A stretch of 64,000 bases of DNA from Chloroflexota bacterium (GCA_019239775.1 JAFAZN010000231.1:12741-76740), one strand, 5' to 3'; positions 38,404-60,012 are shown, counted from the first letter of the stretch. The notes: generated by a model from the sequence alone, not told the origin. Numbers and translations: made by a program.

Positions 38404-40746
38404 TCAGGCTGCGCGCGCCTGTGCGACCGACTCCAGCATCGCTGCGAGCTGATCCCGCGGCACGGGCCGCGAAAAGAGATATCCCTGCCCCCGGTCCGCC
38501 CCGGTACCGGCCAGATACTGCCGCTGGACCTCGGATTCAATTCCTTCCGCGGTGACCTGCATGCCCAAGGACCGCGCCAGCGCCACGATGGCGCGCACGA
38601 TTGCCGAGTCATGTCCGGACCCGCCAAGCCCCTCCACGAACGACTGGTCGATCTTTAGCGCATCCACCGGGAACCGCTTCAAGTAGCTCAGCGATGAATA
38701 GCCGGTGCCGAAGTCGTCGATCGCCACCCGAGTGCCCCACAGCTTGAGCAGCTCCAACGCAGCGGCAGTGGCCTCAGGATGCTCCATGGCCACACTCTCG
38801 GTGATCTCCAGGCAGAGAGAATCGGGCGGCAAGCCCGAGTCCTGCAGCGCCCGGTCGATGTCCTCGAACAGACTCGGGTGCTGGAATTGCCGTCCCGACA
38901 GGTTCACCGACACCCCGAGCTCAGCGCATCCGGCAAACCGCGTCTGCCACGAACGTACGTCGCGGCAAGCGGTTTCGAGCACGAACTGTCCCAGCGGCAC
39001 GATGATGCCGGTCTCCTCCGCGAGCGGAATGAAGTTGCTGGGCGCAACCAGGCCTCGGATTGGGTGGTTCCAGCGCACGAGCGCCTCGACTTCGATGATG
39101 CGCGAGTCCAGCAGCGAAACGATCGGCTGGTAGTAGACCTCGAATTCGCCCCGCTCGAGTCCCTGGCGCATGGAAGCCTCCAGCTCCAGCCGCTCCAGGG
39201 CGTTGCGCTCCATGCTGGCGTCGAATACGGCGTAGCGCGACTTTCCTTTGGCCTTGGCTGCGTACAGCGCCAGGTCGGCATTGCGCAGCAGGTCGTCCGG
39301 CGACCTGACGTCCGGGCTCGAGGCGGCGATCCCGATGCTGGCGCGAATAGGCAGCTCGCGTCCGGATAGATCAAACGGCCGTTCGAGCGCCCCCAGCACC
39401 TGCCTGGCCATCGCGACGAGCGCATTCATGGAGTCCGCCCCCGGTACGAGTACCGCGAACTCATCACCGCCGAGTCGCGCCGCGGTGGCCGAGTGATCCA
39501 GCGAGGCCTGCAATCGCCCGGCGACTTCGACGAGCAGACGGTCGCCAGCGGGGTGCCCCAGGCTGTCGTTGACGGTCTTGAAGTCGTCCAGGTCGAGAAA
39601 CAGAACCCCGGTGCGCTGGCCTGCTGAGAGCGCCTCGGCGAGCCGCGCCTGAAAGTGGGCGCGATTGGCAAGCCCGGTGAGAGCGTCCCCATATGCCTGC
39701 TGAGCGAGGCGCTGCTCGAGCGATTTGCGTTCGGTGATATCGCGCAGCACGACCAGCCGCGCCGAGAACCCGCGTGGCGCCTTACGCAATGGGGACACGT
39801 GCACGTCGAACGAGCGCTCGTCCAGCGTGAGCTCGGTCCGCACCTCCTGCTTGGCGTCGCTGGCATGAATCATTTCAGGCCAACCGTGGAGGACGTCGGG
39901 CGCGGGTCGTCCGCTGACCGCGGCGACCTCAACGCCGAGGATACGTGTGGCAGCCGCGTTCAGGTCGACGATGCGATTGAGACCGTCCAGGACCAGCACG
40001 GCGTCGCTCAGCTCCTCGAAGACGACGTCGCGAGCGACTGGCACGACGTCGAAGAAGTGGAAACGGAAAAGGCCCCAGGCGAAGACGATCGCCGTGGCGG
40101 TACAGGCCATCGGCGTCATGTCGAGGTCGGGTAGCGGCCCGAAGCCGAGATTGGTCGCGAGGTCGGCCAGCCACGGCAGCACAACGCCCATGAGCAGCAT
40201 CAGGATCTGCTGGTGGTACAGCCGCCGGGAACGGAACAGGGAGCGCGCAAGCATGACGATCCCCGAGACGATCACCACGTACGAGTAGGCCAGGTCGATC
40301 CAGAACCAGGTGCCTGGCTCGCCACGGACCGCCAGGAATGGGCCACCGGTGTCCTGGGTGAAGCTGCTCCAGATCAGCCCGGAGCGGTCGCCGCTGAGTA
40401 CGAACAACAACGAGATCAGAGGGACGACGGCCAGCCAGATGCGGCGCGAGGTGACAAAGCCGTGCGCCCGTCCGCCGGCATAGTGCGCCGCGAATATGAT
40501 CCAGGCGGGCGGGACGAGGTCGCCCACGACGTAGGTCCAGCGATGCCAGATGATCTCGATGTGGGCATCTGCCGCGGCAAGCTCGATCGAGTAGGCAATA
40601 GACCATGCCGCGACGGCCCCCATCAACGCCACGAAGGCACGCGCTCCTGCTGCGTTCGGCCGTCTGAGGACGAACAGCGCGAGACAGATCGGCAGCAAAG
40701 CCGAGCTGACGAGTGGCAGCAAGTACGGTGTGAATTGCCAGGACAT
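38404..40746 (-). CDS. membrane sensor with N-terminal multi-TM domain, PAS, GGDEF and EAL domains (c-di-GMP turnover)
   Basis: ~7 N-terminal helices, RLGGDEFAVL (GGDEF) and EVEALVRW (EAL), 780 aa. Confidence 0.9.
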   Translation of the reverse strand: MSWQFTPYLLPLVSSALLPICLALFVLRRPNAAGARAFVALMGAVAAWSIAYSIELAAADAHIEIIWHRWTYVVGDLVPPAWIIFAAHYAGGRAHGFVTSRRIWLAVVPLISLLFVLSGDRSGLIWSSFTQDTGGPFLAVRGEPGTWFWIDLAYSYVVIVSGIVMLARSLFRSRRLYHQQILMLLMGVVLPWLADLATNLGFGPLPDLDMTPMACTATAIVFAWGLFRFHFFDVVPVARDVVFEELSDAVLVLDGLNRIVDLNAAATRILGVEVAAVSGRPAPDVLHGWPEMIHASDAKQEVRTELTLDERSFDVHVSPLRKAPRGFSARLVVLRDITERKSLEQRLAQQAYGDALTGLANRAHFQARLAEALSAGQRTGVLFLDLDDFKTVNDSLGHPAGDRLLVEVAGRLQASLDHSATAARLGGDEFAVLVPGADSMNALVAMARQVLGALERPFDLSGRELPIRASIGIAASSPDVRSPDDLLRNADLALYAAKAKGKSRYAVFDASMERNALERLELEASMRQGLERGEFEVYYQPIVSLLDSRIIEVEALVRWNHPIRGLVAPSNFIPLAEETGIIVPLGQFVLETACRDVRSWQTRFAGCAELGVSVNLSGRQFQHPSLFEDIDRALQDSGLPPDSLCLEITESVAMEHPEATAAALELLKLWGTRVAIDDFGTGYSSLSYLKRFPVDALKIDQSFVEGLGGSGHDSAIVRAIVALARSLGMQVTAEGIESEVQRQYLAGTGADRGQGYLFSRPVPRDQLAAMLESVAQARAA

Positions 40747-41044
40747 GTTGGGTTGCGGAGCGCCATATCAAGCATCGGCCGAGATGGCTCGTGTGTTGAG
40801 CCGCCGGGCATCTGAGCCGAGAATCGCAATCTATCTAGGGATCGCGTTGTCATAACCGGAGCGGCGCGGCCGTTATCATCGCGAAGCAATGGACGGTCGC
40901 GAGGTGCAAAATGGTCGCGATCGCCGACGGGCGTTGCGCCCGGGTGCGGGCGAGCGCCCGTCAACGCGCCGCGGCTACACCTTTCCTCGCGCCGAGCATC
41001 GGCACCCCGTGTACGGTCGTCAGGCGCGGCGAGAGAGCCGTCAG

Positions 41045-41380
41045 ATGCCGTACATCATCGGCTTCATCGTGGTGGTGCTGGGCTTGGCTGGTTTTCTGTA
41101 CGTCGGCCTGAATTGGGCAACGGGCCCAGGTCGTGTTGCGGCGCTGGCGAACCCGCCAACGCCAACCGCGATTGCGGTCCTGCCGCCGCCCACGGCCGAG
41201 CCGAGCCCCACGCCGGCCTCGCAGACCTACATCGTGCAAGCGGGTGATAGCCCCGCGAGCATCGCGGCCAAGTTCAAGATCAAAACCGAGGACCTGGTCG
41301 CCGCCAACAACATCGACGATCCTCAGAAGCTGCAGATCGGCCAAAAACTGCAGATCCCCCTACCTGCGACGGGCCACTAG
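41045..41380 (+). CDS. membrane-anchored LysM-domain protein
   Basis: ATG at 41045 (MPYIIGFIVVVLGLAGFLYV), a Pro-rich linker, then LysM YIVQAGDSPASIAAKFKIKTEDLVAANNIDDPQKLQIGQKLQIP. The track start at 40889 adds an Arg-rich extension. Confidence 0.8.
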   Translation: MPYIIGFIVVVLGLAGFLYVGLNWATGPGRVAALANPPTPTAIAVLPPPTAEPSPTPASQTYIVQAGDSPASIAAKFKIKTEDLVAANNIDDPQKLQIGQKLQIPLPATGH

Positions 41381-41613: not shown

Positions 41614-41643
41614 AAGGCGATTGCTATACTTGGTCGGCGCTAA

Positions 41644-41715
41644 GCCGACGTAGCTCAGGGGTAGAGCAATGCTTTCGTAAAGCATGGGTCGGGGGTTCGA
41701 ATCCCTTCGTCGGCT
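41644..41715 (+). tRNA. tRNA-Thr (anticodon CGT)
   Basis: Hand-folded cloverleaf: GCCGACG-TA-GCTC-AGGGGTA-GAGC-A-ATGCT-TTCGTAA-AGCAT-GGGTC-GGGGG-TTCGAAT-CCCTT-CGTCGGC-T. CCA is not encoded. Confidence 0.9.
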
Positions 41716-41796
41716 CCCACTTATTCGAGTTCAATTCAACCAGGATTGGACCCGTCCGGACGCCCTTAAGGCGCCGAGTACACCCATTCGTACACC

Positions 41797-42114
41797 TTAG
41801 AAATCGCAGGCAGCCTCCCCAATCGCCCGTTTCTGCGCGGCAACAGCTGCCTGGGTGCCGGTCGCGTCTATGCTCAGGCGGCGACGCTGATTGATAGTGG
41901 CGAGTTGAGGCTGGATGCGCTCCTCGGGCACTGGCAAACCGCGGGCGACCAATCCCTCGATATGGAGTGCAATCGCCTCCCGGGCGCGCTCACGACATTC
42001 GTCGACTGTCTCGCCTTATGTGACTACCCCTGGTAACGCGGGCACCGTGACGGTGTATCCCCCCTCCTCGTCGTCAGGGTCAAGCAGGATCGTGTAGCGT
42101 CGTTCGTCCGTCAT
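41797..42114 (-). pseudogene. hicB: hicB-family antitoxin gene with an in-frame TAA at codon 33
   Basis: My translation is MTDERRYTILLDPDDEEGGYTVTVPALPGVVT*GETVDECRERAREAIALHIEGLVARGLPVP... The stop (42018-42016) sits where HicB proteins usually have Q (CAA). Confidence 0.7.
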
Positions 42115-42131: not shown

Positions 42132-42206
42132 TTACAGCAGCCGGCGCAGATCATCCACGCTCAGCCCAACTTTGACGTACGCGTAACACCGCAGGGGCTC
42201 ATGGAC
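42132..42206 (-). pseudogene. hicA: 3' remnant of a hicA-family toxin gene
   Basis: Only ~24 codons are open (..YAYVKVGLSVDDLRRLL*), resembling a HicA C-terminus. It ends 17 nt upstream of the hicB start and the 5' two-thirds are missing. Confidence 0.4.
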
Positions 42207-42251: not shown

Positions 42252-42800
42252 ATGCGGGATCGTTTTGCGTTGGCTGGCGGGGGAAGTCTACTCGTGGCCA
42301 TCGTTCTCACGGCATGGTTCATTGTCAGCCGATCGGCTCCGGCGAATGATCAACCGCAGATCGCCGTCGATGTGCCTGCGCCGCGGCCTACCGCTACGCT
42401 AGCGACCTCGCCCACGCCTGTAGATCGCTCCGTTGCACTGGTGGTTCACCTGGATGGCATCTCAGGCTCGAGTAGCTTTGCCCAGGCCGGCGACCGTATC
42501 GATCTGTTGGCGTATCTGCCAGCTGAGCTCGCTGGTCAGGCCACCACTCGTGTGTTGTTGCACGATGTACTGGTCCTCGACTCTGGGACCGGCCCATCAG
42601 ATTCGGCACTGACGGTAGAGGTGTTACCCGAGGACGCCGTCCTGGTCGTGTCAGCTACGAACCTGGGGGCGAGGCCATTTGCGGTCATCCGCCCAGTCGA
42701 CACTACAGTCGATGCCCGCCTGCCAGATGGCGTGACGGATGAGGCCTTGCGAGCGCGCGTGGGCGGCCCTCCGATCCTTGCTGAGTCGTCGAGACACTGA
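42252..42800 (+). CDS. CpaB/RcpC-like Flp pilus assembly protein (short form)
   Basis: ATG at 42252 preceded by GAGGGGG. N-terminal TM helix, then GDRIDLLAY...TRVLLHDVLVLD...ALTVEVLPEDAVLVVSATNLGARPFAVIRP (RcpC-type C-domain). No clear SAF domain. Confidence 0.55.
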   Translation: MRDRFALAGGGSLLVAIVLTAWFIVSRSAPANDQPQIAVDVPAPRPTATLATSPTPVDRSVALVVHLDGISGSSSFAQAGDRIDLLAYLPAELAGQATTRVLLHDVLVLDSGTGPSDSALTVEVLPEDAVLVVSATNLGARPFAVIRPVDTTVDARLPDGVTDEALRARVGGPPILAESSRH

Positions 42801-43717
42801 TGCTCGGTCCGGATGCTGGCCTGATGATGGCGGTGGCTGCGCTTACGGGCGTCGGGGTCGGCTGCCTGGTGCTGGTTTTCATGCAGCGGCGAGCGCGTCG
42901 AGCACGCGGCCGCCGCATGGCGTTGTTGGTTGGCGTCGCGACGCCATCGAGCACAGCTAGCGAGTTCAGGTTTGCTCCGCAGCTCGCGGCATTCAATCGT
43001 GCCACCCAGCGTGCGCGCGGCATGCTACGAGCCCGAGCCGAGCTCGTTATTCGCCTGGCCACGCTGGCCGCCATCGGCTGCGCAATGGTTGGTCTGATCG
43101 GGGGACTGCCCGGTCTATTTCTCGTCACGGCCATTTGCGGGAGCCTGATCTTCTGGCTCCGCCGTGAATCCCAAGAACGCAATAAGCTGGATCGCCAGGC
43201 CGCGTCGGCATTCGAGATGCTGGCCAATGGCCTGCGCGCGGGCTACAGCATCCCGCAGGCAATCGCTCTGGTCGCGCGACAGAGCCCGCGGCCAACCGCC
43301 ACGGAATTCGCGACCGCCGAGCGCGAACTGACTCTCGGCTCGAGTCTGGCTGACTGTCTCGCGCGGCTCGCTGACCGGACTGCACTCGCTGACTACCGCC
43401 TGGTCAGCATCGTGATCTGGATCCAGTCCGAAGTCGGCGGCAATCTCCCGGTCGTCCTCGACGCCGTTGTCGCTACGTTGCGAGAGCGCATGGAGCTGCG
43501 CGATCAGGTCGCCGCGGTCACCGCCCAACAGCGCATGGCGTCCATGGTTTTGAGCCTGCTTCCGCTTGGGGTGCTGTTGCTGTTCATGGCGGTAGACCGC
43601 ACCTTCGTGGACCCGATGTTCACCCAGACGGTCGGGCGCGTCATGCTGACGATCGCGGCCATGTTGCTTGGCGCGGGCTGGTTCTTCATGCGCGCGGTAA
43701 GCAAGGTAGAGCTGTAG
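42800..43717 (+). CDS. tadB: TadB-like platform protein (T2SS-F family)
   Basis: FEMLANGLRAGYSIPQAI...ELTLGSSLADCL...IQSEVGGNLPVVLD...R, with flanking TM helices. Its ATG overlaps the upstream stop (TGATG). Confidence 0.75.
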   Translation: MLGPDAGLMMAVAALTGVGVGCLVLVFMQRRARRARGRRMALLVGVATPSSTASEFRFAPQLAAFNRATQRARGMLRARAELVIRLATLAAIGCAMVGLIGGLPGLFLVTAICGSLIFWLRRESQERNKLDRQAASAFEMLANGLRAGYSIPQAIALVARQSPRPTATEFATAERELTLGSSLADCLARLADRTALADYRLVSIVIWIQSEVGGNLPVVLDAVVATLRERMELRDQVAAVTAQQRMASMVLSLLPLGVLLLFMAVDRTFVDPMFTQTVGRVMLTIAAMLLGAGWFFMRAVSKVEL

Positions 43718-43719
43718 CG

Positions 43720-44637
43720 ATGCATCTCCCCGATCTGAGCGTGATCTTGCTCGCGGGTACCTGGAGCCTGGTCGCGGCGTTTGCCACTGCGTTCGTATTG
43801 CGCAGGCGTCGCCGCAAAGCGGTCCGGTCGCGCCTGGTCGCGCTTCACATCGGCGGCTTGCGACCACAGCCGGTGAGCAGTGCCCGGCCGAGGCTGTACT
43901 TCAATGCCGCCAAGTTCACCGCAATCGTCGCCAGGCGTGCGCCAAAATTGGTCGAGCGGCTGCAACACCAGATCGATGGCAGCGACCAGCTCGGCAAATT
44001 GACGTGGGTACGGTTGCTTTCGCTGCAAACCGCTTTCGCTGGGTGCGGATCCCTCGTCGGCGTTGTGCTGATGCTCAATCTCGGAGCACGAGGGATTGCG
44101 GTCGTCATCTTGCTCGGGGCTCTGGGCTGGTTCGCCCCCACGCTGTGGCTCGCTCAGCGGCGCCGCGCCCGCGTGCGCCAGATGACGCGTGATCTGCCGA
44201 CCGTCATCGATCTGTTGTCACTGAGCCTTCAGGCCGGTATGGGTCTGGACCGCGCGATTCGCGTCGTGAGTGAACGCGTGGAATCTCCACTCAGTGATGA
44301 GTTACGGCGCGTGCTGGGGGATATCTCGCTTGGTCTTTCCCGACGGGAGTCGTTTACACGCCTGTCAGACCGGCTGCAATCCGATGACATCCGGCTGTTG
44401 ACCACCAGCATCGTTCAGTCCGAGCAGCTTGGCACCAGCCTGGTCGGCACCATCAAGACTCAATCGCACCAGCTGCGCGTTTCCCGCCGGCGCGCCGCGG
44501 AAGCAGCCGCGCTCAAGGCGCCAATCAAGATGCTGGTTCCAATGGTGCTCTTCATCCTGCCAGCGCTGTTCCTCGTGGTGCTCGGTCCGGCGGGCATCAA
44601 TGTCGGCCTGGCGCTGACCGGCGGCGGGCACCCGTGA
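43720..44637 (+). CDS. tadC: TadC-like platform protein (T2SS-F family)
   Basis: DLPTVIDLLSLSLQAGMGLDRAI...LGLSRRESF...QSEQLGTSLVGTIKTQS...KAPIKMLVPMVLFILPALF. It starts 2 nt after the tadB stop. Confidence 0.75.
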   Translation: MHLPDLSVILLAGTWSLVAAFATAFVLRRRRRKAVRSRLVALHIGGLRPQPVSSARPRLYFNAAKFTAIVARRAPKLVERLQHQIDGSDQLGKLTWVRLLSLQTAFAGCGSLVGVVLMLNLGARGIAVVILLGALGWFAPTLWLAQRRRARVRQMTRDLPTVIDLLSLSLQAGMGLDRAIRVVSERVESPLSDELRRVLGDISLGLSRRESFTRLSDRLQSDDIRLLTTSIVQSEQLGTSLVGTIKTQSHQLRVSRRRAAEAAALKAPIKMLVPMVLFILPALFLVVLGPAGINVGLALTGGGHP

Positions 44638-45023
44638 TCGGGCGGCACAACGCCCAGGCGGCGGTGGAATTCGCATTGACGATGCCGCTACTGATGCTGT
44701 TGCTGCTTGGCATCCTCGATGCAGGCAGGGCCGTCGTCGCGGCGGTTTCGATTGATAACGCGGCCCGCGAAGGTGCACGCTACATCGCCGTTCACTTCAA
44801 CGACGGAACGTGCGCCAGCCCGAACTGCCAGACGGAGGCCAGGCAGGTCGTCCTCAACAGCGCGCTCGCACTGGATTCGGGCCAGCTGAGCTCGACCGTG
44901 ACGATCGCGGGCGGCAACGCGAGTATTTTGCTCAGCTACCCGTTCCAGCCCGTCGCGCCGCTCATCACCTCAGTATTCGGTACTCCCGTGCTGACAACGA
45001 CCAGCAGCATGCGGATCCGCTGA
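44634..45023 (+). CDS. TadE-like pseudopilin
   Basis: AQAAVEFALTMPLLMLLLLGILDAGRAV...NAAREGARY. The GTG start overlaps the tadC stop. Confidence 0.75.
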   Translation: MIGRHNAQAAVEFALTMPLLMLLLLGILDAGRAVVAAVSIDNAAREGARYIAVHFNDGTCASPNCQTEARQVVLNSALALDSGQLSSTVTIAGGNASILLSYPFQPVAPLITSVFGTPVLTTTSSMRIR

Positions 45024-45078
45024 CTCTGCTCACCTATCCATCCTGCAATCAACCCACGCTCGTTTACAGGAGAACTTC

Positions 45079-45579
45079 ATGGACACCGCCAACGTCGACC
45101 TGTTTCTTTCTACGCGCCGCCTGCGAGCTGAAATTCCGCTCCGCGGCTTCAGCCGCCTATCGGACGTGCTGAACAACACGCCGGGCGACTTTCTCGCTGG
45201 AACGCTGCGCGGAATCAGCGACGTCCGCTTCTCGGTCAAGCCACTGGCCGACGGATCGGTCGAGCGCGACCTGGTGGTGCGGATCCAGGATGTGTTGATG
45301 GTGCAGCCACTCGACCCGCCCACAGTGTCTCCGGGTTCAACGGCAGAGCGCCGCGATCGCATCCTGCAGCGCATGGTGCTGGAATTGGGCGATTGGCGTC
45401 TGGAAGGCAGCCTGCACCTCGTCGACTGCGTGCGTTGGGTGGACTTTGCGACTGCCAACAATGAACGGTTCCTCGCCATGACGCAGGCTACCGTGGCCAT
45501 GCCTGGCGCCGAGGCGTCATTCGAGAGCTCGTTGGTGCTGGTCAACGGCGCACGGGTCAGCGCGCTCTACGAGTGCTAA
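45079..45579 (+). CDS. hypothetical 166-aa soluble protein in the tad operon
   Basis: AGGAGA lies 5 nt upstream of the ATG. Same strand, 55 nt after tadE-like. No family recognised. Confidence 0.6.
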   Translation: MDTANVDLFLSTRRLRAEIPLRGFSRLSDVLNNTPGDFLAGTLRGISDVRFSVKPLADGSVERDLVVRIQDVLMVQPLDPPTVSPGSTAERRDRILQRMVLELGDWRLEGSLHLVDCVRWVDFATANNERFLAMTQATVAMPGAEASFESSLVLVNGARVSALYEC

Positions 45580-45604
45580 CCGAGTACGGCACGGCAGCCA
45601 AGGG

Positions 45605-46654
45605 CTAGGTGGTCAGAACGACGACCGCGTTGCCCTGAAGCGGCCCGCTCTGGCGGGCGGTACTGGTCGGATCGACAACATACGGCAGGAAGTAGCCGAT
45701 CAAATGCGTCGTGGAGATCTGGCTTTGCTGCAGATAAAACCGCGCAAAGCCAACGATTGTCACCGTTGGCCCCCCACATGGGTTGCACAGCGGCACGTCG
45801 AGCAAGATGTAAGGCGGGACTCCCATCCCGTTGTACGTCGGGTCGTTCGGCAGATTTTGCCGCCGAACATTGTCCTGTAGCCCGGTTTGCACGTCGGTCG
45901 CATAGCCTGCTCCGGCCAATCCGACCGTCGAGCCCACCGCCAGCGTGCCAACGGCATGGCTGCCATCTGACCAGTACTGCATGCTGGTATGCGCGTTGCC
46001 GTACAAAGGTGCAGTCGACCCGCCGCTTCCTGCACTCGTGGTTAAATCCAGAAATGGCGCAGCCAGGCTGTAGAGGTCGTATGCGTTGCCACCGCTAGCC
46101 ACATAGGACGCCCGCGGTATCACGAGCGGCACCATAGTCGTCAGCGAGGTCGGTGGCGCAACAGGTACTAGGCGCGCTTGTGAAGTGGCGCTGATCTGAA
46201 TGTTGCCCAGGCCAACGAAAGGCATCAGCACCGTATGGAAGGCTCCGTTCAGGGATACCTGGACGCCTGCGCTCGTCACGGGCATCATGCCACCGCCAAC
46301 CGTGCCGACAGTCGCGCCAGTCTGATCCACATACATTGCCTGGAGGGCAGCGTCGGTGGGGACGGACACCTGGTTCTGGGTAGCCATGCTCTGAGCCTGT
46401 CCAAGCACGGCCGAATCGAGATACACCCGCGATGTTTGCTCGTCCAGCACACGCCACGTCGCCGCGAGCGCCATCGCGTCGGCCGCATTCTGCAGATGGC
46501 GGCGCTGAACGAGGAAGAAACCCATGTTCAGGACAAGACCAACGAAGGCGAGAACGCCTACCAGCGCGAACGCGGTGAAGACGAGTGCCTGCCCGCGGGT
46601 GCGTCCTCGGGCGGTCTGAGCTAAGGAAGGCCTTCGAAATGCCGATACTTGCAT
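45605..46654 (-). CDS. TadG-like (Tad N-terminal domain) pilus-associated protein
   Basis: ATG at 46654 (MQVSAFRR...). RGQALVFTAFALVGVLAFVGLVLNMGFFLVQRRHLQNAADAMALAA is typical of the TadE/G-like N-domain. The track start at 46837 overlaps the divergent gene. Confidence 0.65.
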   Translation of the reverse strand: MQVSAFRRPSLAQTARGRTRGQALVFTAFALVGVLAFVGLVLNMGFFLVQRRHLQNAADAMALAATWRVLDEQTSRVYLDSAVLGQAQSMATQNQVSVPTDAALQAMYVDQTGATVGTVGGGMMPVTSAGVQVSLNGAFHTVLMPFVGLGNIQISATSQARLVPVAPPTSLTTMVPLVIPRASYVASGGNAYDLYSLAAPFLDLTTSAGSGGSTAPLYGNAHTSMQYWSDGSHAVGTLAVGSTVGLAGAGYATDVQTGLQDNVRRQNLPNDPTYNGMGVPPYILLDVPLCNPCGGPTVTIVGFARFYLQQSQISTTHLIGYFLPYVVDPTSTARQSGPLQGNAVVVLTT

Positions 46655-46709
46655 GGATGCTGACGACGGAGAAGCGGCCGAGTATACGTTCTGTCCCCAG
46701 GGACGCCAA

Positions 46710-47690
46710 ATGAACGTGCTCAACCGCTGGCGCACGTTCACCGAGCGACGCGCAGTGGCTCGATTGACTGGCCCTGTGATAGCGGCCGGCGTCGGGGTGT
46801 TTACGTTCGCCGCCGTACTGCTCGTACTCAGTTCCACTTTGAACGGTCAGACGCAAAACACAGCGCCAGCAAGTGCGGCGACACCCGTCGAAGAGGCGCC
46901 ACAGCCTACCGCCGTCGTCGCTGCGGCAAACATTTCGATCTCGACACATCTACCGCCGGGCCACGTAGCGATCGGGGTGCCGTTTTCGGGCGGCAGTGCG
47001 CCACTGAACGAAATCCACGTTGGCGTCCATGTCGACGTGCTGGCTTCGTTCCCCGAAAGCGCGTCGGGCCCTGGCTTTGTGGGCCAGATCGTCTCGGGCG
47101 CGCAAGTGCTGCAGCTGGCCGCCAGCGGCGATCACTCGGCGTCGGCATTGCTCGACGTGCCCGCGGAATCGGGCATGTGGCTGGGCCATCTGGTTCGCGA
47201 GGGTGTGCCGCTGACCTACACCGTCCGCACCGAGCAGCAGACCGGCTCGGCGTATCCCTCACTCACGGCGTCCGAGGTTCTAGCGCGTTTGACTGGCCTG
47301 CGCGCGAGCGGCAAACCCACGGCGGTACCAGCGGCCACTCCTGAACCTCAGACGGTGCAAGATCACGAGGTGTCGCAGGTCGACTTCGTGGCGTACGAAG
47401 GGGTGACAGTAACTGACATCCAACAGCGGTTTGGCGTGACCGAGGCCGCGCTGCGGGCAGCCAATCCGACCGTGGACGACATTGCGGTTCTGGAACCGGG
47501 AACGGAATTGGTTATTCCGGGTCTCTATGGCTTTGCGTACACCGTGCGGGTGGGCGATACGTGGACGTCGCTATCGAGTACCTTCGGCATCTCAGTTGAA
47601 GCACTTGCGCGCGTTAACGGCCTGCCCGAAGAGACGCTGCCAGCAGTCAATACCCTGCTGTTGATCCCTGCGCCGGGCCACGCGCCTTAG
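46710..47690 (+). CDS. CpaB/RcpC-like protein fused to two C-terminal LysM domains
   Basis: ATG at 46710 (MNVLNRW) and a TM helix. GHVAIGVPF...GVHVDVLASF...IVSGAQVLQL...GVPLTYTVR (RcpC-like). Two LysM-like repeats follow (YEGVTVTDIQQRFGVTEAALRAANP...; YTVRVGDTWTSLSSTFGISVEALARVNGL...). Confidence 0.6.
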   Translation: MNVLNRWRTFTERRAVARLTGPVIAAGVGVFTFAAVLLVLSSTLNGQTQNTAPASAATPVEEAPQPTAVVAAANISISTHLPPGHVAIGVPFSGGSAPLNEIHVGVHVDVLASFPESASGPGFVGQIVSGAQVLQLAASGDHSASALLDVPAESGMWLGHLVREGVPLTYTVRTEQQTGSAYPSLTASEVLARLTGLRASGKPTAVPAATPEPQTVQDHEVSQVDFVAYEGVTVTDIQQRFGVTEAALRAANPTVDDIAVLEPGTELVIPGLYGFAYTVRVGDTWTSLSSTFGISVEALARVNGLPEETLPAVNTLLLIPAPGHAP

Positions 47691-48865
47691 CGCGCGTCTG
47701 GTGCGACCGCGGCGGCCATTTCGCGTACTTTGGCAACGAGCGGATCGAAGGCTTGCTGGAATTGCGCACCAAGCGTAGGCCTACCGTCATTGATCGACTC
47801 GGTGAGCTGAGCGCCCACGCTTGGGAGCTTCAGGATCTGACGGGTGCCCACAACGCCGGCGACGTCGTCGAATGTCAGCCCGCCAGTACTGTTGGCTCTG
47901 TTGAGCACGAAAATCATGCGTTCTCTCGAGTAGCCGAGTCGCTCCGCAAGGCCAAGGTACTGGTGCACATTGCGTAGCGCCCCAAGCGTCGCGGTCATCA
48001 CGATGACCTGAACGTCGGCCACGTCAAGTGAGGCCAGCGCGCGTTCGTCGTAGAAGCGAGCTGTGTCGGTGACGACCCATTCGTAGGATCGCGCCAAGGC
48101 GCTCAAAACACTGCGCATGTGGTCACTCGAGACAGTGTCGACCAGTTCTGGGCGATTCGGACGGTCGAGTAGTCCAACGCCGCTGCCGTGCTTGGCGACG
48201 GCACTCTCGATCGTCGAGGAGTCCAGCGCGTCGATGTGCGGCAGCAAATCAATGACTGAATGCTCGCCAGCCATACCGAGATGAATTCCCGCATCACCGT
48301 ACTGCAGGTCGGCATCGAACAGGAGAACAGACCGTTGCGTCTGTCGGCGCAGCGAGAGAGCGAGATTTGCGGCGACCGTCGTGCTGCCGACGCCACCTTT
48401 TGTGCCAAGTACCGCAATCCGCTTGCCGAGCGCCAGTGAGACGGGCGGCGGCGCCTTGGTGACTGTGGTCACTCGACGACCTTGCAGGCGTTGGTGGGTC
48501 TCACGGACGGTCTGCAGCAGGCTCTCACCGTTGCCAAAGGGTTTCAAGACGTAGCCCTGGGCACCGGCACTCATGGCCTTTTGCAGGAAGTCGATGCGCT
48601 CTTCGGACGTGACCATGATGACGGCGCCGTTTGGCACTTGCGACGACACAAGCCACGTGGCCTGGATTCCATCCATGTCCGGCATGTGGATGTCCATGAG
48701 CACCACATCCGGTTGCAGCTCACTCGCCCGCCGCACCGCATCCTGACCGCTCGAGGCGTTTGCCACGACCTGCATGTCCTGCTGCTCTGCGATCAGCTGC
48801 GTAAGATGCGCACGCTGCAGCGCGCTGTCGTCAGCTATCAGGATCCTGATGCGCTGTTCAGTCAT
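47687..48865 (-). CDS. response-regulator receiver fused to a CpaE/TadZ-type MinD/ParA ATPase
   Basis: ATG at 48865 overlaps the kinase stop (ATGA). IRILIADDS...VVLMDIHMPDMDG...VIMVTSE...YVLKPF (canonical REC), then VLGTKGGVGSTTVAANLA (deviant Walker A). Confidence 0.8.
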   Translation of the reverse strand: MTEQRIRILIADDSALQRAHLTQLIAEQQDMQVVANASSGQDAVRRASELQPDVVLMDIHMPDMDGIQATWLVSSQVPNGAVIMVTSEERIDFLQKAMSAGAQGYVLKPFGNGESLLQTVRETHQRLQGRRVTTVTKAPPPVSLALGKRIAVLGTKGGVGSTTVAANLALSLRRQTQRSVLLFDADLQYGDAGIHLGMAGEHSVIDLLPHIDALDSSTIESAVAKHGSGVGLLDRPNRPELVDTVSSDHMRSVLSALARSYEWVVTDTARFYDERALASLDVADVQVIVMTATLGALRNVHQYLGLAERLGYSRERMIFVLNRANSTGGLTFDDVAGVVGTRQILKLPSVGAQLTESINDGRPTLGAQFQQAFDPLVAKVREMAAAVAPDAR

Positions 48866-51800
48866 GCCGCTTTCGGCAATTGGAGCAGTTCGAAGGCCTT
48901 CCGGGCGCGGTCCAGTGCGGCGTCCAGCTGCGGAACCAGTAGCTCGCACCCGTCCAGCTCGCCAGCGCGGCCGCGCTGTTCGAGTTCGCGGCAGAGCACC
49001 GCCACCTCGAGCGCGCCGACACTCGCAGCGTCGCCCTTGAATGCGTGCGCTGCCTTATGTAGTGCAGTTGAATCGCCGCCAGAAACCGCGGCCCTGACGT
49101 GTTCAAAACGTGATGCCGTTTCCTCGAAGAAGATGCTCAAGAGATTATCCCGCAAGCTGGCGGGCAGTGTCTCCAGGGTGGCTTTATCGAGCGCCTCAGG
49201 TTTTGGTTCCGGAGCGGGCGGCCCCTCGACATCGGGTGCGGCTGTTGCTCCAGCACAGCGTGCGAGGGCGGCCGACAAGTCGTCGAGACGCACAGGCTTG
49301 GACACGTAGTCATCCATCCCGGCCTCGATGCACCGCTCTCGGTCGCCGGCCATGGCGTTAGCCGTCATGGCGATGATGGGTAGCCGAGGCCCAGAGCCCT
49401 GGCGATTGCGAATCTCACGCGTGGCACCGAAACCGTCCATCTCTGGCATCTGACAGTCCATCAATACCACGGCATAGGTGGTACTTTCGATCGCTTCGAG
49501 CGCTTCGAGACCGTTGTTGACAACGTCGGCTTCCAGTCCGAGCTTGGCGAGCAAACCGAGCGCCACCATCTGGTTGACCTTGGAGTCCTCCGCCACCAGC
49601 AGTCTGCCCGGCAGATGCAGGGTTGGTCGTTGCTGCATGAGCCTGTTGCGTAGTGGCGCAATGGCTTGGGAACCCTGAAATGCCTCCGCGAGCACGTCGA
49701 ACAATTGCGATGGGCGGATTGGCTTGGTCACCTGGCCTGCGACGCGCAAGCCGTGTTCCGGCTCGCCTTGCAGACCCAGGAGCACCAGTTTGACCGTGCT
49801 CAGCGCCGGGTCCTCCGCGACGACGCGTTCGAGCTCTCCGCCATCGGTGCTCGCGATCCGCACGTCCACGAGGCAGGCAGCAAACGGCTGCTGGAGATCG
49901 ACTGCGCTGCGCAAAGCCACCAGCGCGGCACTTGAGCTCTCGGCCTCATCGGCGACCATTCGCCAGGCGGCCAGGTGGTCGCGCAGCATCTCGCGACTGG
50001 CTCGACTCTCATCAACGATCAGGACACGCCGGCCTTCGAACGCCGAAAAGTCAGTCACGTCCTCCGCTTGTGGGCCGGCCTCGAAAGATGCGGTGAACCA
50101 GAACGTGCTGCCGTGGCCGAGCTCGCTGTCAACGCCGATCTCGCCGTCCATCATATCCACGAGTCGGCGGCAGATCGCGAGGCCGAGTCCCGTGCCGCCA
50201 AACTGGCGGGTAGTCGACCCGTCCGCTTGCACGAAAGGCTGGAACAGACGTTCGCGGCTCTCTTGGCTGATGCCGATGCCGGTATCAGACACCTCGAAGC
50301 GCACCTTGACGCAATCGTGATCGTTCTCGACGATCCGCGCTCGCACGACGACTTCGCCCTGATGCGTGAACTTCACCGCGTTCCCGGCCAGGTTGAGCAG
50401 AATCTGCCGCAACCGAGTTGGGTCGCCGCGAAGCGTTCTCGGGATGTCATGACCGATCACGCAAGCCAGCTCGACGCCCTTCTTGTATGCCGCCTTGCCG
50501 AGCAACTCGGCCACATCTTCCGCGACGTCGCGCACGTCCATGTCGACCCGTTCCAGGACGAGCTTGCCCGCTTCAATCTTCGAGAAGTCGAGTATATCGT
50601 TGATCAATGTCAGTAGCGCCTCACCCGACCTGCTAAGTGCCTCGACGTATCCAACCTGCCGAGGCGTCAGATCGGTGTCCAGCAGCAGCTCAGTCATGCC
50701 GATCACACCATTCATCGGCGTGCGGATTTCATGGCTCATGGTCGCCAGGAACTCGCTCTTCGCGCGACTCGCATCGAGCGCTGCGTCGCGAGCTTCGGCC
50801 AGCGCCAGCAGCATCACCTCGCGCTCGGTGAGATCTGTGACCGCCATCACCAGTCCTTCGAATTCTGTGCTTTTGAAGCGCGCCGCGACGGTGATCAAGG
50901 CGCGGAAAGTGGATCCGTCCAGGCGCGTCAGCTGCGCGTCGAAGCTGCCGATTTCGGTGCCCCAATCGCGCAGGTCGATCGCCGTGAGCGCTTCGCGATC
51001 CTCATCGCAGTAGAAGTCGAGGACCGACTTTCCGAGCAAGTCCTCCGAATTGCAGCCGAGCATCTGGGCAAGTGCGGGGTTCGCGTATAAGAAGTGGCCG
51101 CCCGGCCCGGTGACACCCAGGCCCTGCGCCATCGTAGTGAGCACTAGCTGGGCGAAATCACGCTCGTCCTGCAGTTTGGTCTCGGCTTCTTTGCGTTCGG
51201 TGACGTCGTGGCTGACGACCACGAAATGAGTCACCGCGTCGAGCTCCCCGCGCACGGGTGTGATTGTCATTTCCTCGTTGTAAGGCGTTCCATCCTTGCG
51301 GCGGTTGACAATCACGCCCTTCCAACTTCGCCCGGCTAGCACCGTTCGGCGGATGTCGGCATAGACCTCGGGCGACTCGGGTTCGGACTTCAACATGCTG
51401 AGCGCGTGACCGCGCGCCTCTTCCACTGTGTAGCCCGTCAACTCCGAGAATGCCGCGTTGGCCCATTCGATCGCTCCCTGGCCATCCGTCAAGACGATCG
51501 CGTTGGCGCTCGCCTCCAATGCCGTGGTCAGGAGTTGTTGCCGAGCAGCAGACTGACGCTGCGCAGTAATGTCGCGCGCGATGGCTTCGAAGCCAACCAG
51601 CGTGCCGCCATCATCGACGACCATCTGGACGTGCTGGCCAAGCCAGAGGAGTTCGCCGTCAGACCGTGCGCACGGGAACTCGTAGTAGGTGCTGACGACG
51701 CGGTCGCGGACCTGTCGTCTGTAAAAGCGGGCGGCTTCACGACGAAAATCGCTGTGGATCAACTCCAGGTAATGACGGCCCAGGATCTCTTCAGAGGTGT

Positions 51801-52962
51801 AGCCGGTCACCTGGGTAGCGACAGGGTTGGCGAAGGTGAAACGGCCACGCCCATCGGTGCGATAGATGATGTCTCGGGCGTGTTCAACCAGGTGAACGGT
51901 GCGCGCCTCGTTTTCGCGCGCTCTCTCCGCTATGTCTTGAAATTGCCGCACCTCGACCTGCACGTCGTCGGCCATCGAGTCGAATGCATGGCGAAACCTC
52001 CGTGCGAGGCGACGCCACCACAAGAAGCTGAATAAGACAATCGCCGCAGAGACCAGCGCTCCGAGCACCAGTTGGCGTGTCGCTGACTCGTAGTCCGAGC
52101 CAGTGACCAGGTCGCTGGGTTCCGTGACCACGGCTGCCCACGGTGTGCTCGCGACCCTGGTTGAGGCCTCTAGCCAATCACGGCCGTCTGCCGCCAGCAC
52201 GTGCCGGGTCGCGTCCTCGCCACGCAGGTCGTCGAGTAGATCATGATTGACTTCGGTCGCCCACAGGGCCGGGGCCTTGCTCTGTCCCAGGACGGCGCCA
52301 GTGCGCAGATCGACCAGCGATGCCGAAGCGCCACGGGGTAGGTCGAGCGTGCTCCATCCGGCTAGTGAGCCGCCCAGGCGCAACCCAGCAACGATGTATC
52401 CGTGATGCAAGCCATTTGGCTCGTCGATGGGCACCGCGATCGGCAGGAGCACGGGTGTGCCTGGGTCGGCGAGCTGCATTTGAGTGGGGTCACCGAAGGC
52501 GATCATGTGGGTCGCCGCAGCGTCCTCAACGTACGGGCTCGACGTGAAGTCGGCGCGCGCCTCCACGGGTGCGTCGACCGAATGCCCGTGATCCATAAGG
52601 TCTTCGCCAACAAAGGTGAGACCGGAGAACAGCTCTGAGTTTCCGTTCATCGCGACAAGAAGCGCGTCGCGGCTGGCGTCTGTGCCATCCCAGAAGCCGG
52701 GCAGACGCGCGGCAGTGGCGCTCGCACGGCGCAACTGGTCGACTACGTCCACCAGTTGCACAGCCGCGGACCTGGTCTGGAGCGACGCTTGCCGTAGGGC
52801 CGTTGCTTCCGCGTCCTGCTTGGCTCGGTGGATTCCCAACAGAGTGCCCGTACAGCTGAGCAGCAACATTGCTCCGATCAGGCAGGCAAAGCGTGCCCCG
52901 ACCGACAGGCGGCCCTGATTGAACTGCGCCAAGCCGCGCGTCAGATGCGGTGTGGACTTCAT
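48862..52962 (-). CDS. hybrid sensor histidine kinase: TM, extracytoplasmic Cache-like region, TM, multiple PAS, HisKA, HATPase, REC, REC, Hpt
   Basis: H-box FLATMSHEIRTPMNGV, N-box LLNLAGNAVKFT, G-boxes DTGIGIS and GGTGLGLAI, REC VVLMDCQMPEMDG...YVSKPV, Hpt HKAAHAFKGDAASVG. 1366 aa. Confidence 0.9.
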   Translation of the reverse strand: MKSTPHLTRGLAQFNQGRLSVGARFACLIGAMLLLSCTGTLLGIHRAKQDAEATALRQASLQTRSAAVQLVDVVDQLRRASATAARLPGFWDGTDASRDALLVAMNGNSELFSGLTFVGEDLMDHGHSVDAPVEARADFTSSPYVEDAAATHMIAFGDPTQMQLADPGTPVLLPIAVPIDEPNGLHHGYIVAGLRLGGSLAGWSTLDLPRGASASLVDLRTGAVLGQSKAPALWATEVNHDLLDDLRGEDATRHVLAADGRDWLEASTRVASTPWAAVVTEPSDLVTGSDYESATRQLVLGALVSAAIVLFSFLWWRRLARRFRHAFDSMADDVQVEVRQFQDIAERARENEARTVHLVEHARDIIYRTDGRGRFTFANPVATQVTGYTSEEILGRHYLELIHSDFRREAARFYRRQVRDRVVSTYYEFPCARSDGELLWLGQHVQMVVDDGGTLVGFEAIARDITAQRQSAARQQLLTTALEASANAIVLTDGQGAIEWANAAFSELTGYTVEEARGHALSMLKSEPESPEVYADIRRTVLAGRSWKGVIVNRRKDGTPYNEEMTITPVRGELDAVTHFVVVSHDVTERKEAETKLQDERDFAQLVLTTMAQGLGVTGPGGHFLYANPALAQMLGCNSEDLLGKSVLDFYCDEDREALTAIDLRDWGTEIGSFDAQLTRLDGSTFRALITVAARFKSTEFEGLVMAVTDLTEREVMLLALAEARDAALDASRAKSEFLATMSHEIRTPMNGVIGMTELLLDTDLTPRQVGYVEALSRSGEALLTLINDILDFSKIEAGKLVLERVDMDVRDVAEDVAELLGKAAYKKGVELACVIGHDIPRTLRGDPTRLRQILLNLAGNAVKFTHQGEVVVRARIVENDHDCVKVRFEVSDTGIGISQESRERLFQPFVQADGSTTRQFGGTGLGLAICRRLVDMMDGEIGVDSELGHGSTFWFTASFEAGPQAEDVTDFSAFEGRRVLIVDESRASREMLRDHLAAWRMVADEAESSSAALVALRSAVDLQQPFAACLVDVRIASTDGGELERVVAEDPALSTVKLVLLGLQGEPEHGLRVAGQVTKPIRPSQLFDVLAEAFQGSQAIAPLRNRLMQQRPTLHLPGRLLVAEDSKVNQMVALGLLAKLGLEADVVNNGLEALEAIESTTYAVVLMDCQMPEMDGFGATREIRNRQGSGPRLPIIAMTANAMAGDRERCIEAGMDDYVSKPVRLDDLSAALARCAGATAAPDVEGPPAPEPKPEALDKATLETLPASLRDNLLSIFFEETASRFEHVRAAVSGGDSTALHKAAHAFKGDAASVGALEVAVLCRELEQRGRAGELDGCELLVPQLDAALDRARKAFELLQLPKAA

Positions 52963-53105: not shown

Positions 53106-54371
53106 ATGTCGGACCGGTTCAAGGGCCAATCCATCGTCGAGTTTGCCCTCATGGTCCCCGTGCTGCTCGTCCTGGCGTTAATCACTCTCGACGTTGGGCG
53201 TCTGTACGTCTTCTGGGTGGACCTGTCGAACGCCGCGCGCGAAGGCGCGTACGTGGCCTCGATCGCCTATTCGGGCGCCACGCCGAACGCAACGGTCGTC
53301 GACGCGGTCATCAACGAGAATCCCTCGCTGGGCCTTCAGGCCAGCCAGGTCAGCGTGAGCTACCTGTCCGCCGGCACCATCGTCAGCGTCCAGGTGAGCT
53401 ATCCGTTCCAGCCGATCGCCCCCCTGGTGCGCAGCGTGTTCGGCAACTCGCTGTCTGTCACCGCCAGCGCCGAGTTCCCGGTCCGACTCCAGCCAACCGT
53501 TGCGCCGACCGTGGCGCCCAGCACGGCGACACCTACCTCGACGCCTATACCAACAGCGACCAACACGCCAACCGCAACGCCGTCTCCGACTAATACGCCG
53601 ACCGCGACGGCCACGCCCACCAACACCCCAACTGCCACGCCGTCTCCGACCAATACGCCGACCGCGACGGCCACGCCCACCAACACGCCAACCGCAACGC
53701 CGTCTCCAACCAACACCCCAACCGCGACGACCAGACCAACGAATACGCCGACGTCGACCAACACGCCTACTCCAACGAACACACCCACCAAAACGCCGAC
53801 CCCAACAAATACACCGACAAACACCCCGTCACCAACCCCGTCGCCGACCAATACGCCAAGCCCGACGCCGACGCCGGTCGCTACCGTCGTTCTCGTCGGC
53901 GACACCACCATCGAGTCGCAAGATGACAGCATCTCGGGCGGTACTGCGTACGCCTATGTGTTCCAGGCCCAAGCCACCGGTACGAGCGGCAGAGCGCACA
54001 TCTATGTGGCCGCAGGCAGTGCCATCAGCAAGGTCATCGTAGGTCTCTACGCTGACGGCGGCGGACAGCCGGGTACGCTGCTCGGTACGACGTCGATCAG
54101 TGCACCGGCCGTAGGCGCCTGGAACACCGCTGCGCTCCCCGGTGTCACGGTGAGCAATGGCAATCTCTACTGGATCGCGGTGCTACCTATCGGCAACCAC
54201 GTGGTTGTCGAAGACCGTCCTGCCGATTTCTTCTGGTTGCTGTGGTGGTTCCTCAATGGCTCGCCGCCGGCTGAAGCGAGTTCCTCGAGCACGCTCACAG
54301 CGCTGCCCGCGACGTGGGCCGCGGGCAGCGACGCGTTCGCCTACTACGTCTCGGCCTACGTCACCAATTGA
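53106..54371 (+). CDS. TadE-like pseudopilin with a prepilin motif, long Pro-Thr linker and ~170-aa C-terminal globular domain
   Basis: [32 protein letters not shown] (G/xxxxEF), NAAREGAY, then ([10 protein letters not shown])n, then a beta-rich C-domain ([15 protein letters not shown]...[10 protein letters not shown]). GTG at 53076 is an alternative start. Confidence 0.75.
53527..53878 (+). repeat. Coding tandem repeat (Pro-Thr linker) containing three ~60-bp units at 53560, 53620 and 53680
   Basis: Units 53560-53619 and 53620-53679 differ at only a handful of positions. Flanking copies are more degenerate. Confidence 0.9.
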
Positions 54372-57167: not shown

Positions 57168-57307
57168 CGTGAGCAGTCATTGTGCAAGTAACCTGCCAGG
57201 CTTCGGTGGACGTCGCCAGCTGAACACCGCTCGCGCGGGGGATCCCCCATCAGGGGGCTGTATTGACCCCTGTGGGGCGGGATGCACACACACCGACGCG
57301 GCGATGC

Positions 57308-58390: not shown

Positions 58391-58477
58391 AGCGCACTTT
58401 TGCCTAAAAGCGAAACTCTGCATCGAGCGGCTCGCCACGTGGCACTCTTCACGCTACGCTGAAGAATCAATCTCGAT

Positions 58478-58774
58478 ATGACGTTCAAACGCCCAACGCC
58501 TCGCGATGCCGCCCGCCAGCCGGATACGTCCAACGCAGCACATGACCAGACGCAGCGCTCGCCTTATAGCGCGCGAGCGCTTGGCATCCGCGCTGAGTTA
58601 GGAAGTCGATTACAGGAATTGCGGCTGATGCAACTCGAACTAGAGCGCCACGGCGGTAGCCGGGAGGACTCTGCGACCGTGGTTGACGCTGCCAAACATG
58701 TCGAGGCTGCCATGGCAGCACTCTCGCGAGTGGGTGGCGGTGGCCACGATCAGAACGCGACACCGAAAGAATGA
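58478..58774 (+). CDS. hypothetical 98-aa protein (weak call)
   Basis: ORF with A/T-ending codons atypical for this genome. No SD and no family recognised. Confidence 0.3.
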   Translation: MTFKRPTPRDAARQPDTSNAAHDQTQRSPYSARALGIRAELGSRLQELRLMQLELERHGGSREDSATVVDAAKHVEAAMAALSRVGGGGHDQNATPKE

Positions 58775-58982
58775 TGCGCATGGCCCCAAACCAAGTCCAG
58801 GGGGCATTTACTGGTGTCGTCGTGGAGACGTCTGTGACTCCACCAACCGATCTGCCTGTACACCCCTTCGGACACCTTAGCCAACGGACGGCGACGGAAC
58901 TTTGCGGCCTTAGGAGGACTATTCGCCCGACCTGGAACTCGGCGCGGACGAGCTTAGACGCCGCTGGACGGACCGCGTGGCA

Positions 58983-59023
58983 TTCGTAAAGCCTGGGTCG
59001 GGGGTTCAAATCCCTTCGTCGGC
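58983..59023 (+). repeat. Partial tRNA-Thr 3' half (candidate attR)
   Basis: TTCGTAAAGCcTGGGTCGGGGGTTCaAATCCCTTCGTCGGC matches 41674-41714 at 39/41 positions. There is no D-arm or 5' acceptor strand upstream. Confidence 0.8.
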
Positions 59024-59059
59024 GCCGGACTTGGCCGACCCAGGCGGAACGGTCGGTAC

Positions 59060-59971: not shown

Positions 59972-60012
59972 TTTGATGTTTGTGCGAATTGACAAGGTAA
60001 GCCTCCTCCCGT

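Follow-up and report, generated by a model that had tools for sequence, protein, structure and literature searches.

Three parts define the type IV filament machines, namely a platform, a hexameric ATPase and a major pilin. Among the systems closest to the gene set described here, the actinobacterial tad cluster of Mycobacterium tuberculosis (Rv3654c-Rv3660c) is a monoderm-type Tad system that has tadA and flp and is not known to carry an Hpt, DUF6812 or LysM-CpaB gene, and its peptidase is encoded apart from the cluster. The Kil system of Myxococcus xanthus is said to be a diderm system with a secretin and to have retained an ATPase, a peptidase and a major pilin (KilP) of its own. In two papers, Kil is described as a Tad-like apparatus encoded in two loci (PMC8460266, PMC12075869). 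Tad systems nearly always keep their genes at a single locus with tadA beside tadB and tadC, scattered systems being very rare, and prepilin peptidases are commonly encoded away from the system they serve, tadV sometimes lying apart (PMC6668835). The TadZ protein has been described as a localisation hub with low ATPase activity (Denise et al. 2019, PMC6668835), and rcpC-tadZABC clusters have been described in Chloroflexota (bioRxiv 10.1101/2025.08.19.671072). In this phylum the canonical Tad locus reads flp-cpaB(rcpC)-cpaE(tadZ)-cpaF(tadA)-tadB-tadC, e.g., in Longilinea arvoryzae (L004). Here we analyzed one strand of a 64,000-nucleotide (nt) stretch of DNA from Chloroflexota bacterium (GCA_019239775.1 JAFAZN010000231.1:12741-76740), hereafter the window, which represents 64 kb of a 78,129-bp source contig (~14 kb of the contig lie outside). 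It contains a set of ten Tad-type genes, hereafter the module, which encodes a platform, an organiser and pseudopilins and lacks a CpaF/TadA-type ATPase, an Flp pilin and an A24 prepilin peptidase.

The initial annotation had described a Tad/Flp-type gene set without secretion ATPase, Flp pilin or prepilin peptidase, and Pfam, motif, tblastn and small open reading frame (ORF) scans agree on this description. Searching six frames of the whole 64 kb for GxxGxGK[ST] returned a single match, located in a TsaE-like gene at 18594, and none of the CpaF type. Using as tblastn queries the Pfam-verified CpaF (465 aa, T2SSE 9e-65) and Flp (48 aa) of the canonical Longilinea arvoryzae locus, we obtained no match and no CpaF remnant in the tRNA-flanked island that carries the module. 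A weak CpaF-like tblastn match at 32490-32612 (E=0.006, 48 aa) falls within an ORF without Pfam support and was attributed to chance. Neither T2SSE nor Peptidase_A24 was present among the large ORFs of the window, all of which were run through Pfam. A six-frame scan for the Flp/TadE N-terminal motif recovered only two TadE-type genes and no Flp, and among ORFs of 25-110 aa between 41.7 and 59.1 kb, the scan for a leader plus transmembrane segment yielded nothing but a repeat artefact on the antisense strand and a fragment internal to TadB. An ATPase or pilin gene missed by the initial annotation was thus found by neither the six-frame nor the small-ORF scan of the island, and of the core genes that Tad systems usually keep in a single locus, those for the ATPase, Flp and the peptidase are missing here.

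This composition is not a peculiarity of the window. The set of approximately ten genes recurs, without ATPase and without Flp, on ~20 independent contigs of other Chloroflexota in varied neighborhoods, the flanks differing by contig (inositol-catabolism genes with LacI, GntR, GrpE/DnaK, or a small kinase). The carrier assemblies are GCA_019237995.1, GCA_019244775.1 and GCA_035309865.1, and the nearest public matches are metagenome-assembled genomes labelled Chloroflexi or Chloroflexota. Every gene of the related loci is an ortholog of a window gene according to BLAST. REC-CpaE is the most conserved module protein (51-54% identity), and the identities for the other orthologs are 41-53% for TadB, 40-52% for TadC, 40-48% for DUF6812 and 31-67% for the TadG-like protein. 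CpaB1 orthologs (33-38% identity) lie upstream of TadB, and CpaB-LysM orthologs are present, in all related loci. Moreover, the protein search delimited a distinct TadC subfamily, the members of which are 40-55% identical to the window protein with 80-100% coverage and E<=1e-50, before the E-value jumps to ~1e-37 for canonical TadC. In the related loci we found no CpaF-type Walker A motif and no tblastn match to CpaF or Flp, and their gene tables contain no Peptidase_A24. Scanning metagenomes with the DUF6812 profile yielded 35 further loci; the same set was present in all 15 added loci of at least 4 kb, none of which gave a CpaF or Flp match. Throughout the synteny comparison with relatives, which the initial annotation had suggested, the same ATPase-less and Flp-less set was found, and the absence of CpaF/TadA, Flp and A24 peptidase holds across all module loci examined.

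Two gene orders were observed. In the majority order, the first strand carries genes for Hpt (118 aa), an RcpC-like protein, two T2SSF proteins, a 165-186-aa protein orthologous to DUF6812, and RcpC/LysM, followed by REC-CpaE and TadE on the opposite strand and then by the TadG-like and large TadE-type genes again on the first strand. The window order, in which TadE lies between TadC and DUF6812 and TadG is inverted, is common to three closer relatives (L050-L052, 55-72% identity). In both orders the CpaB1-TadB junction is tight, the genes overlapping, lying 1 nt apart or sharing 1 nt (window, L038/39, L042, L044), and this junction is the position of the cpaE-cpaF pair in canonical loci. Considering that the same stripped set occurs on ~20 contigs, as opposed to canonical loci with CpaF upstream of TadB, the ATPase-less layout is ancestral to this module family, and the set represents a conserved accessory module of the Tad type, lineage-restricted and found in soil Chloroflexota.

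A 39-aa single-transmembrane peptide (M..KPxWVDALEESLLLAI...GH) is conserved at or just past the module end in three loci (Table 1). As a candidate cryptic pilin it was rejected as part of the module, since it lacks a conserved Gly where cleavage would be expected and the window carries no homolog.

The initial annotation had limited the gene set to 42252-48865. Its gene list was confirmed by Pfam, the limits were too narrow: the set extends to the hybrid histidine kinase with its Hpt domain and to the large TadE-type gene (Table 1). The close packing that it had reported for the cpaB-like, tadB, tadC, tadE-like and orf166 genes, with overlaps or gaps below 60 nt, was reproduced, as CpaB1 and TadB share 1 nt, TadB and TadC are 2 nt apart, TadC and TadE overlap by 4 nt and TadE is separated from orf166 by 55 nt. 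In addition, the stop codon of the hybrid kinase overlaps the start of CpaE (ATGA). The adjacent TadB and TadC form an inner-membrane platform pair of two T2SSF proteins, as in Tad systems. CpaB1, whose ORF starts at 42201 or 42252 and ends at 42800, marginally missed the Pfam RcpC cut-off (E=1.7e-6, 28.3 bits; cut-off 28.8), stayed below that of TIGR03177 (1.9e-6, 27 bits; cut-off 71), and aligned to canonical Chloroflexota CpaB by hhalign with a probability of 42% over 38 columns only. None of the module proteins received an NCBIfam name above threshold; the best sub-threshold matches were the Rv3655c family for TadE and the Rv3654c family for the TadG-like protein, both from the Mycobacterium tuberculosis tad cluster.

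Table 1 Features of the tRNA-Thr island and the module in the window, and a small peptide of related loci. Positions are those of the window unless a locus is named.
Feature	Position	Strand	Evidence
tRNA-Thr(CGT), complete	41643..41719	+	ARAGORN; Rfam tRNA 67 bits
Left direct-repeat copy (attL-like), 3' 47 nt of tRNA-Thr	41671-41717	+	Repeat search
hicB antitoxin gene, TAA nonsense at codon 33	41797..42114	-	Translation; Pfam HicB-like match on L047 gene
hicA remnant, last ~24 codons and stop, abutting the left end of the module	42132..42206	-	Translation
CpaB1, small membrane-anchored RcpC/CpaB-like protein without SAF domain	42252..42800	+	Pfam RcpC
TadB, inner-membrane platform protein	42800..43717	+	Pfam T2SSF 4.5e-15
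TadC, inner-membrane platform protein, distinct subfamily	43720..44637	+	Pfam T2SSF 3.3e-18
TadE pseudopilin, class-III signal motif AQAAVEF	44634..45023	+	Pfam TadE 5.4e-16
DUF6812 protein (orf166), module signature gene	45079..45579	+	Pfam DUF6812 2.9e-6, 27.6 bits vs 27.1 cut-off
TadG-like protein: Tad N-terminal domain, then ~280 aa of unknown fold	45605..46654	-	Pfam Tad 6.7e-8
CpaB-LysM: membrane anchor, weak RcpC-like domain, two LysM	46710..47690	+	Pfam LysM 1e-15, RcpC 0.025
Receiver-CpaE/TadZ: CheY-like receiver and ParA/MinD-type domain	47687..48865	-	Response_reg 4.7e-27, AAA_31/CbiA 7e-11
Hybrid histidine kinase, 1366 aa: 3 PAS, HisKA, HATPase, 2 REC, C-terminal Hpt	48862..52962	-	Pfam
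Large TadE-type pseudopilin, 421 aa, motif GQSIVEF	53106..54371	+	Pfam TadE 1.7e-11
Right copy (attR-like), 47-nt partial tRNA-Thr, 91% identical	58980..59026	+	DNA search, alignment
39-aa peptide	L038 15036-15155; L042 15371-15490; L045 10727-10846		

The signaling part of the module comprises HisKA, HATPase_c, two REC domains and Hpt in the hybrid kinase and the CheY-like receiver of CpaE, between which phosphotransfer is putative. The Hpt domain of the kinase (48898-49143) is the ortholog of a standalone Hpt gene located at the head of the module in other loci, with 38-43% identity between the standalone proteins and the domain. Read from the sequence, the CpaE receiver carries all phospho-acceptor residues (DD, D56, T84, K106), and the PDB matches of the protein are CheY and ParA 3ea0. 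CpaE is the only nucleotide-binding protein in the set; its Walker A motif is KGGVGST, without the P-loop lysine, and a Walker A census returned the same for canonical CpaE of the phylum. Because the lysine is lacking, as in TadZ, CpaE is not a candidate for the missing motor. In our literature search nothing was found that links TadZ to an Hpt relay.

Three proteins of the set, TadE, the TadG-like protein and the large TadE-type protein, have N-termini of the prepilin type. Of these pseudopilins, TadE and the large TadE-type protein of every locus examined carry the motif [G/A/S]Q[A/S][A/L]VE[F/L/M]AL after a short basic leader, which is the class-III signal recognised by A24 peptidases. Both TadE-type proteins are therefore predicted to need a peptidase that the module does not encode, and the retention of the motif together with the lack of a peptidase in the loci suggests that one or more factors encoded elsewhere are needed by the module. 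The large TadE-type protein further contains a Thr/Pro-rich linker encoded by 30/60-nt tandem repeats (53557-53836), the copy number of which varies among near-identical strains, giving products of 381, 421 and 481 aa.

The ten genes of the module have intact reading frames both in the window and in four strain variants (99.7-99.99% identical), the contigs of which are shorter than the source contig and reach ~1.3 kb past the window on the left, and the genes are intact too across lineages diverged to 30-55% identity. The ratio of nonsynonymous to synonymous substitutions (dN/dS) of the module genes against window-order relatives (55-70% identical) is 0.07-0.26, the values being approximate as synonymous sites are saturated, and single-nucleotide polymorphisms between the strain variants are too few for a selection test. 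The argument of the initial annotation that intact genes speak against plain decay is strengthened by these ratios, and no frameshift was found in the module genes of the window and the strain variants. Purifying selection thus acts on the module genes, and the module is predicted to be functional.

The signature gene of the module encodes a member of DUF6812. This family is tiny, a search of 1.84 billion proteins yielding only 46 representatives at E<=1e-10, and our literature search found nothing on it. The protein is predicted to be soluble and to consist of two tandem small beta-barrels (AlphaFold2, predicted local distance difference test score (pLDDT) 83.7), and the Foldseek matches of this model are weak, Sm/LSm-like barrels with E~7e-3. 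In the module loci examined, the DUF6812 gene always lies directly downstream of TadC or TadE. A distant member (189 aa; L085-L087), which sits among GHMP-kinase, GDPD, AA_kinase and HAD genes in a non-Tad context, shows that the fold is not confined to Tad-type modules. In three loci (L077, L078, L082) we observed a variant module that ends inside the DUF6812 gene at approximately residue 116 and is followed by a reverse-strand histidine kinase; the LysM, CpaE, TadE and TadG genes are missing from this variant.

Searching species-representative genomes for exact peptide words of a single protein (TadC) returned only canonical loci. In these, TadC is 31-42% identical to the module protein, and REC-CpaE, a ~1.4-kb gene, TadB and TadC are found in all. 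CpaF lies directly upstream of TadB in 36 of the 37 canonical Chloroflexota loci, the exception being cut by the contig end, and most of the 37 have Flp and a SAF-RcpC CpaB upstream, while none has Hpt. The module shares with canonical Tad the TadB/TadC pair (~25-42% identity), a receiver TadZ/CpaE with a lysine-less Walker A, a putative RcpC-type protein, and TadE/TadG-type pseudopilins with the G/xxxxE motif. It differs in lacking CpaF, Flp and the peptidase, in carrying CpaE on the opposite strand, in a CpaB-like protein that has no SAF domain and abuts TadB, and in the extra DUF6812 protein, LysM-bearing CpaB-like protein and Hpt function. With the ATPase, Flp and single-locus organisation missing, the module is not a complete Tad system, although the platform, organiser and pseudopilins are shared. 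Kil resembles the module as a Tad-derived machine that is not confined to one locus and that has specialised minor pilins or tips. Shared prepilin peptidases (PilD/GspO/ComC, TadV 'loner') provide a precedent for relying on a component encoded elsewhere, yet this sharing concerns the peptidase and not the motor ATPase (PMC6668835).

The genomic context of the module in the window is that of an island. A complete tRNA-Thr gene and a partial copy of its 3' part form a 47-nt direct repeat in the same orientation, with two matches in the window versus zero expected, and such an arrangement is typical of an element integrated into a tRNA gene. The repeats delimit a 17.3-kb segment that contains hicB, the stump of hicA, the Tad-type module with the kinase and the large TadE-type gene, and genes for a GT2 glycosyltransferase and a GH26 hydrolase. 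No integrase was found by Pfam among the scanned island ORFs, the small ORFs at the island ends not having been run through Pfam; by translation, 41.7-42.2 kb holds only hicB and the hicA fragment, and 58.4-59.0 kb holds no convincing ORF. The segment therefore looks like a degenerate tRNA-integrated island without integrase. Codon 33 of hicB is TAA in the window and in strain L046 and CAA (Gln) in strain L047, in which the gene is intact, so that hicB represents a segregating pseudogenisation. At majority-order loci, no tRNA was found near the module.

On the right side, the genes at 54414-63939 are those for the GT2 glycosyltransferase (917 aa), the GH26 hydrolase and a secreted TPR protein, along with a 1308-aa ORF that gave no Pfam match; its N-terminus is rich in Ser/Thr, and it contains 18-nt tandem repeats (63148-63323). 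These genes may form a surface-glycan or matrix group, and in other lineages they are not found beside the module. On the other side, immediately to the left of the tRNA at 38404-41380, lie genes for a 7TM-PAS-GGDEF-EAL protein and a small LysM protein, which could provide a lineage-specific cyclic di-GMP (c-di-GMP) link to the neighboring surface module.

At a probability that we put at roughly 55%, and judging from sequence comparison, the module is a phosphorelay-gated accessory platform and pseudopilin set that uses an ATPase and a prepilin peptidase encoded elsewhere, in line with the proposal of the initial annotation that another tad locus serves it in trans. TadB and TadC would contribute a second inner-membrane platform, accompanied by two RcpC/CpaB-like proteins that may span the wall, one of them held to peptidoglycan by its LysM domains, and by three prepilin-type minor pilins, namely TadE, the TadG-like protein and the large repeat-bearing TadE-type protein. 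The set further comprises the TadZ/CpaE organiser with its predicted phosphorylatable receiver, the Hpt function, which in the window is fused to the hybrid kinase, and DUF6812 as a family-specific, probably cytoplasmic protein. Assembly on this second platform would be powered by a CpaF-type hexamer encoded elsewhere, either shared with a canonical locus or a dedicated orphan, and a TadV-type peptidase, possibly Flp too, would likewise be supplied from elsewhere in the genome, the likely source being the canonical flp-cpaB-cpaE-cpaF-tadB-tadC locus typical of the phylum. A His-Asp-His-Asp relay running from the kinase through REC and Hpt to the receiver of CpaE may switch on or position assembly, and the large variable TadE-type protein could be displayed at the surface as a tip or adhesin subunit. 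Several points weigh against this reading. Tad is usually a single-locus system with tadA beside tadB and tadC, so a platform with a distant ATPase is unusual (PMC6668835), and the module duplicates everything but the ATPase, the pilin and the peptidase. Moreover, TadB and TadC of the module share only ~25-42% identity with their canonical counterparts, so that one ATPase serving both systems would need to fit two divergent platforms.

Alternatively, the module could be a repurposed, autonomous and motor-less Tad-derived envelope complex, a static pseudopilus or anchor or a surface-signaling scaffold instead of a dynamic pilus. In such a complex, DUF6812, taken to be translationally coupled to TadC, would sit at the cytoplasmic face where CpaF is otherwise expected, and the phosphorelay-controlled CpaE would organise the whole. 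The ATPase-less layout, ancestral and under purifying selection, fits such a complex, as do the specific linkage to Hpt, the invariant position of DUF6812 directly after TadC or TadE, and the fact that the module brings its own platform, organiser and conduit proteins and not pilins alone. We nevertheless regard it as unlikely, since the pseudopilins keep the prepilin-peptidase motif and would require an outside factor regardless, DUF6812 has a fold without functional lead (Foldseek E~7e-3) and a distant member in a non-Tad context, and we know of no T2SSF platform that works without a hexamer of the PilB/GspE/CpaF family. Its strictest form, a self-sufficient type IV filament derivative without a PilB/CpaF-family motor, built as a phosphorelay-gated complex of TadZ, TadB/TadC and RcpC(LysM) with the three pseudopilins and with DUF6812 in place of the ATPase at the platform, is more doubtful still. 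Two further explanations were considered. The initial annotation had considered that the left part was lost at the hicA scar, and the scar itself is real, the gene being truncated at the left end of the island. In this scenario, a complete tad locus would have lost flp, tadV, cpaE-cpaF or others in the event that cut hicA to ~24 codons abutting CpaB1, in agreement with an island that has no integrase despite its tRNA-derived flanking repeats and with the absence here of a standalone Hpt gene, which other lineages have ahead of CpaB1. This is highly improbable given that CpaF and Flp are missing in all relatives, in which unrelated genes lie upstream of Hpt-CpaB1, that the tight CpaB1-TadB junction leaves no room for cpaE-cpaF, and that tblastn finds no CpaF remnant. 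The scar is not supported as the reason for the missing genes, the same set being present on ~20 independent contigs elsewhere; it reflects decay of island maintenance functions and not loss of a pilus motor, and a deletion on the hicA side at most removed island functions, e.g., an integrase, or the standalone Hpt gene. Equally improbable is a decaying remnant of non-functional genes on their way to pseudogenes. The nonsense codon in neighboring hicB, the truncated hicA and the truncated module variant in L077, L078 and L082 would agree with it, but ten genes that are intact in four strain variants and in lineages at 30-55% identity, with dN/dS of 0.07-0.26, argue against it.

The window has a G+C content of ~64% and, outside the module region, carries housekeeping genes such as PolA, two Fpg/Nei paralogs, GlpK/GlpD, TsaB/D/E, GroEL, a Mur ligase and aspartokinase. 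The two neighboring Fpg/Nei-type DNA glycosylase paralogs (278 and 292 aa) are located at 12370-14077 on the minus strand, directly downstream of polA. No riboswitch was found by Rfam, and scans for consensus promoters and terminators gave matches no commoner than the shuffled expectation.

Together, the module provides the uncharacterised DUF6812 family with a concrete genomic context, and automated system finders that require an ATPase may miss or misclassify it. Its TadZ-type organiser is tied directly to an Hpt phosphorelay, which, if true, would constitute a post-translational switch for pilus-type assembly. A conserved set of this kind, under selection and without an ATPase, major pilin or peptidase of its own, points either to one motor serving two divergent platforms or to a use of the platform that needs no motor.

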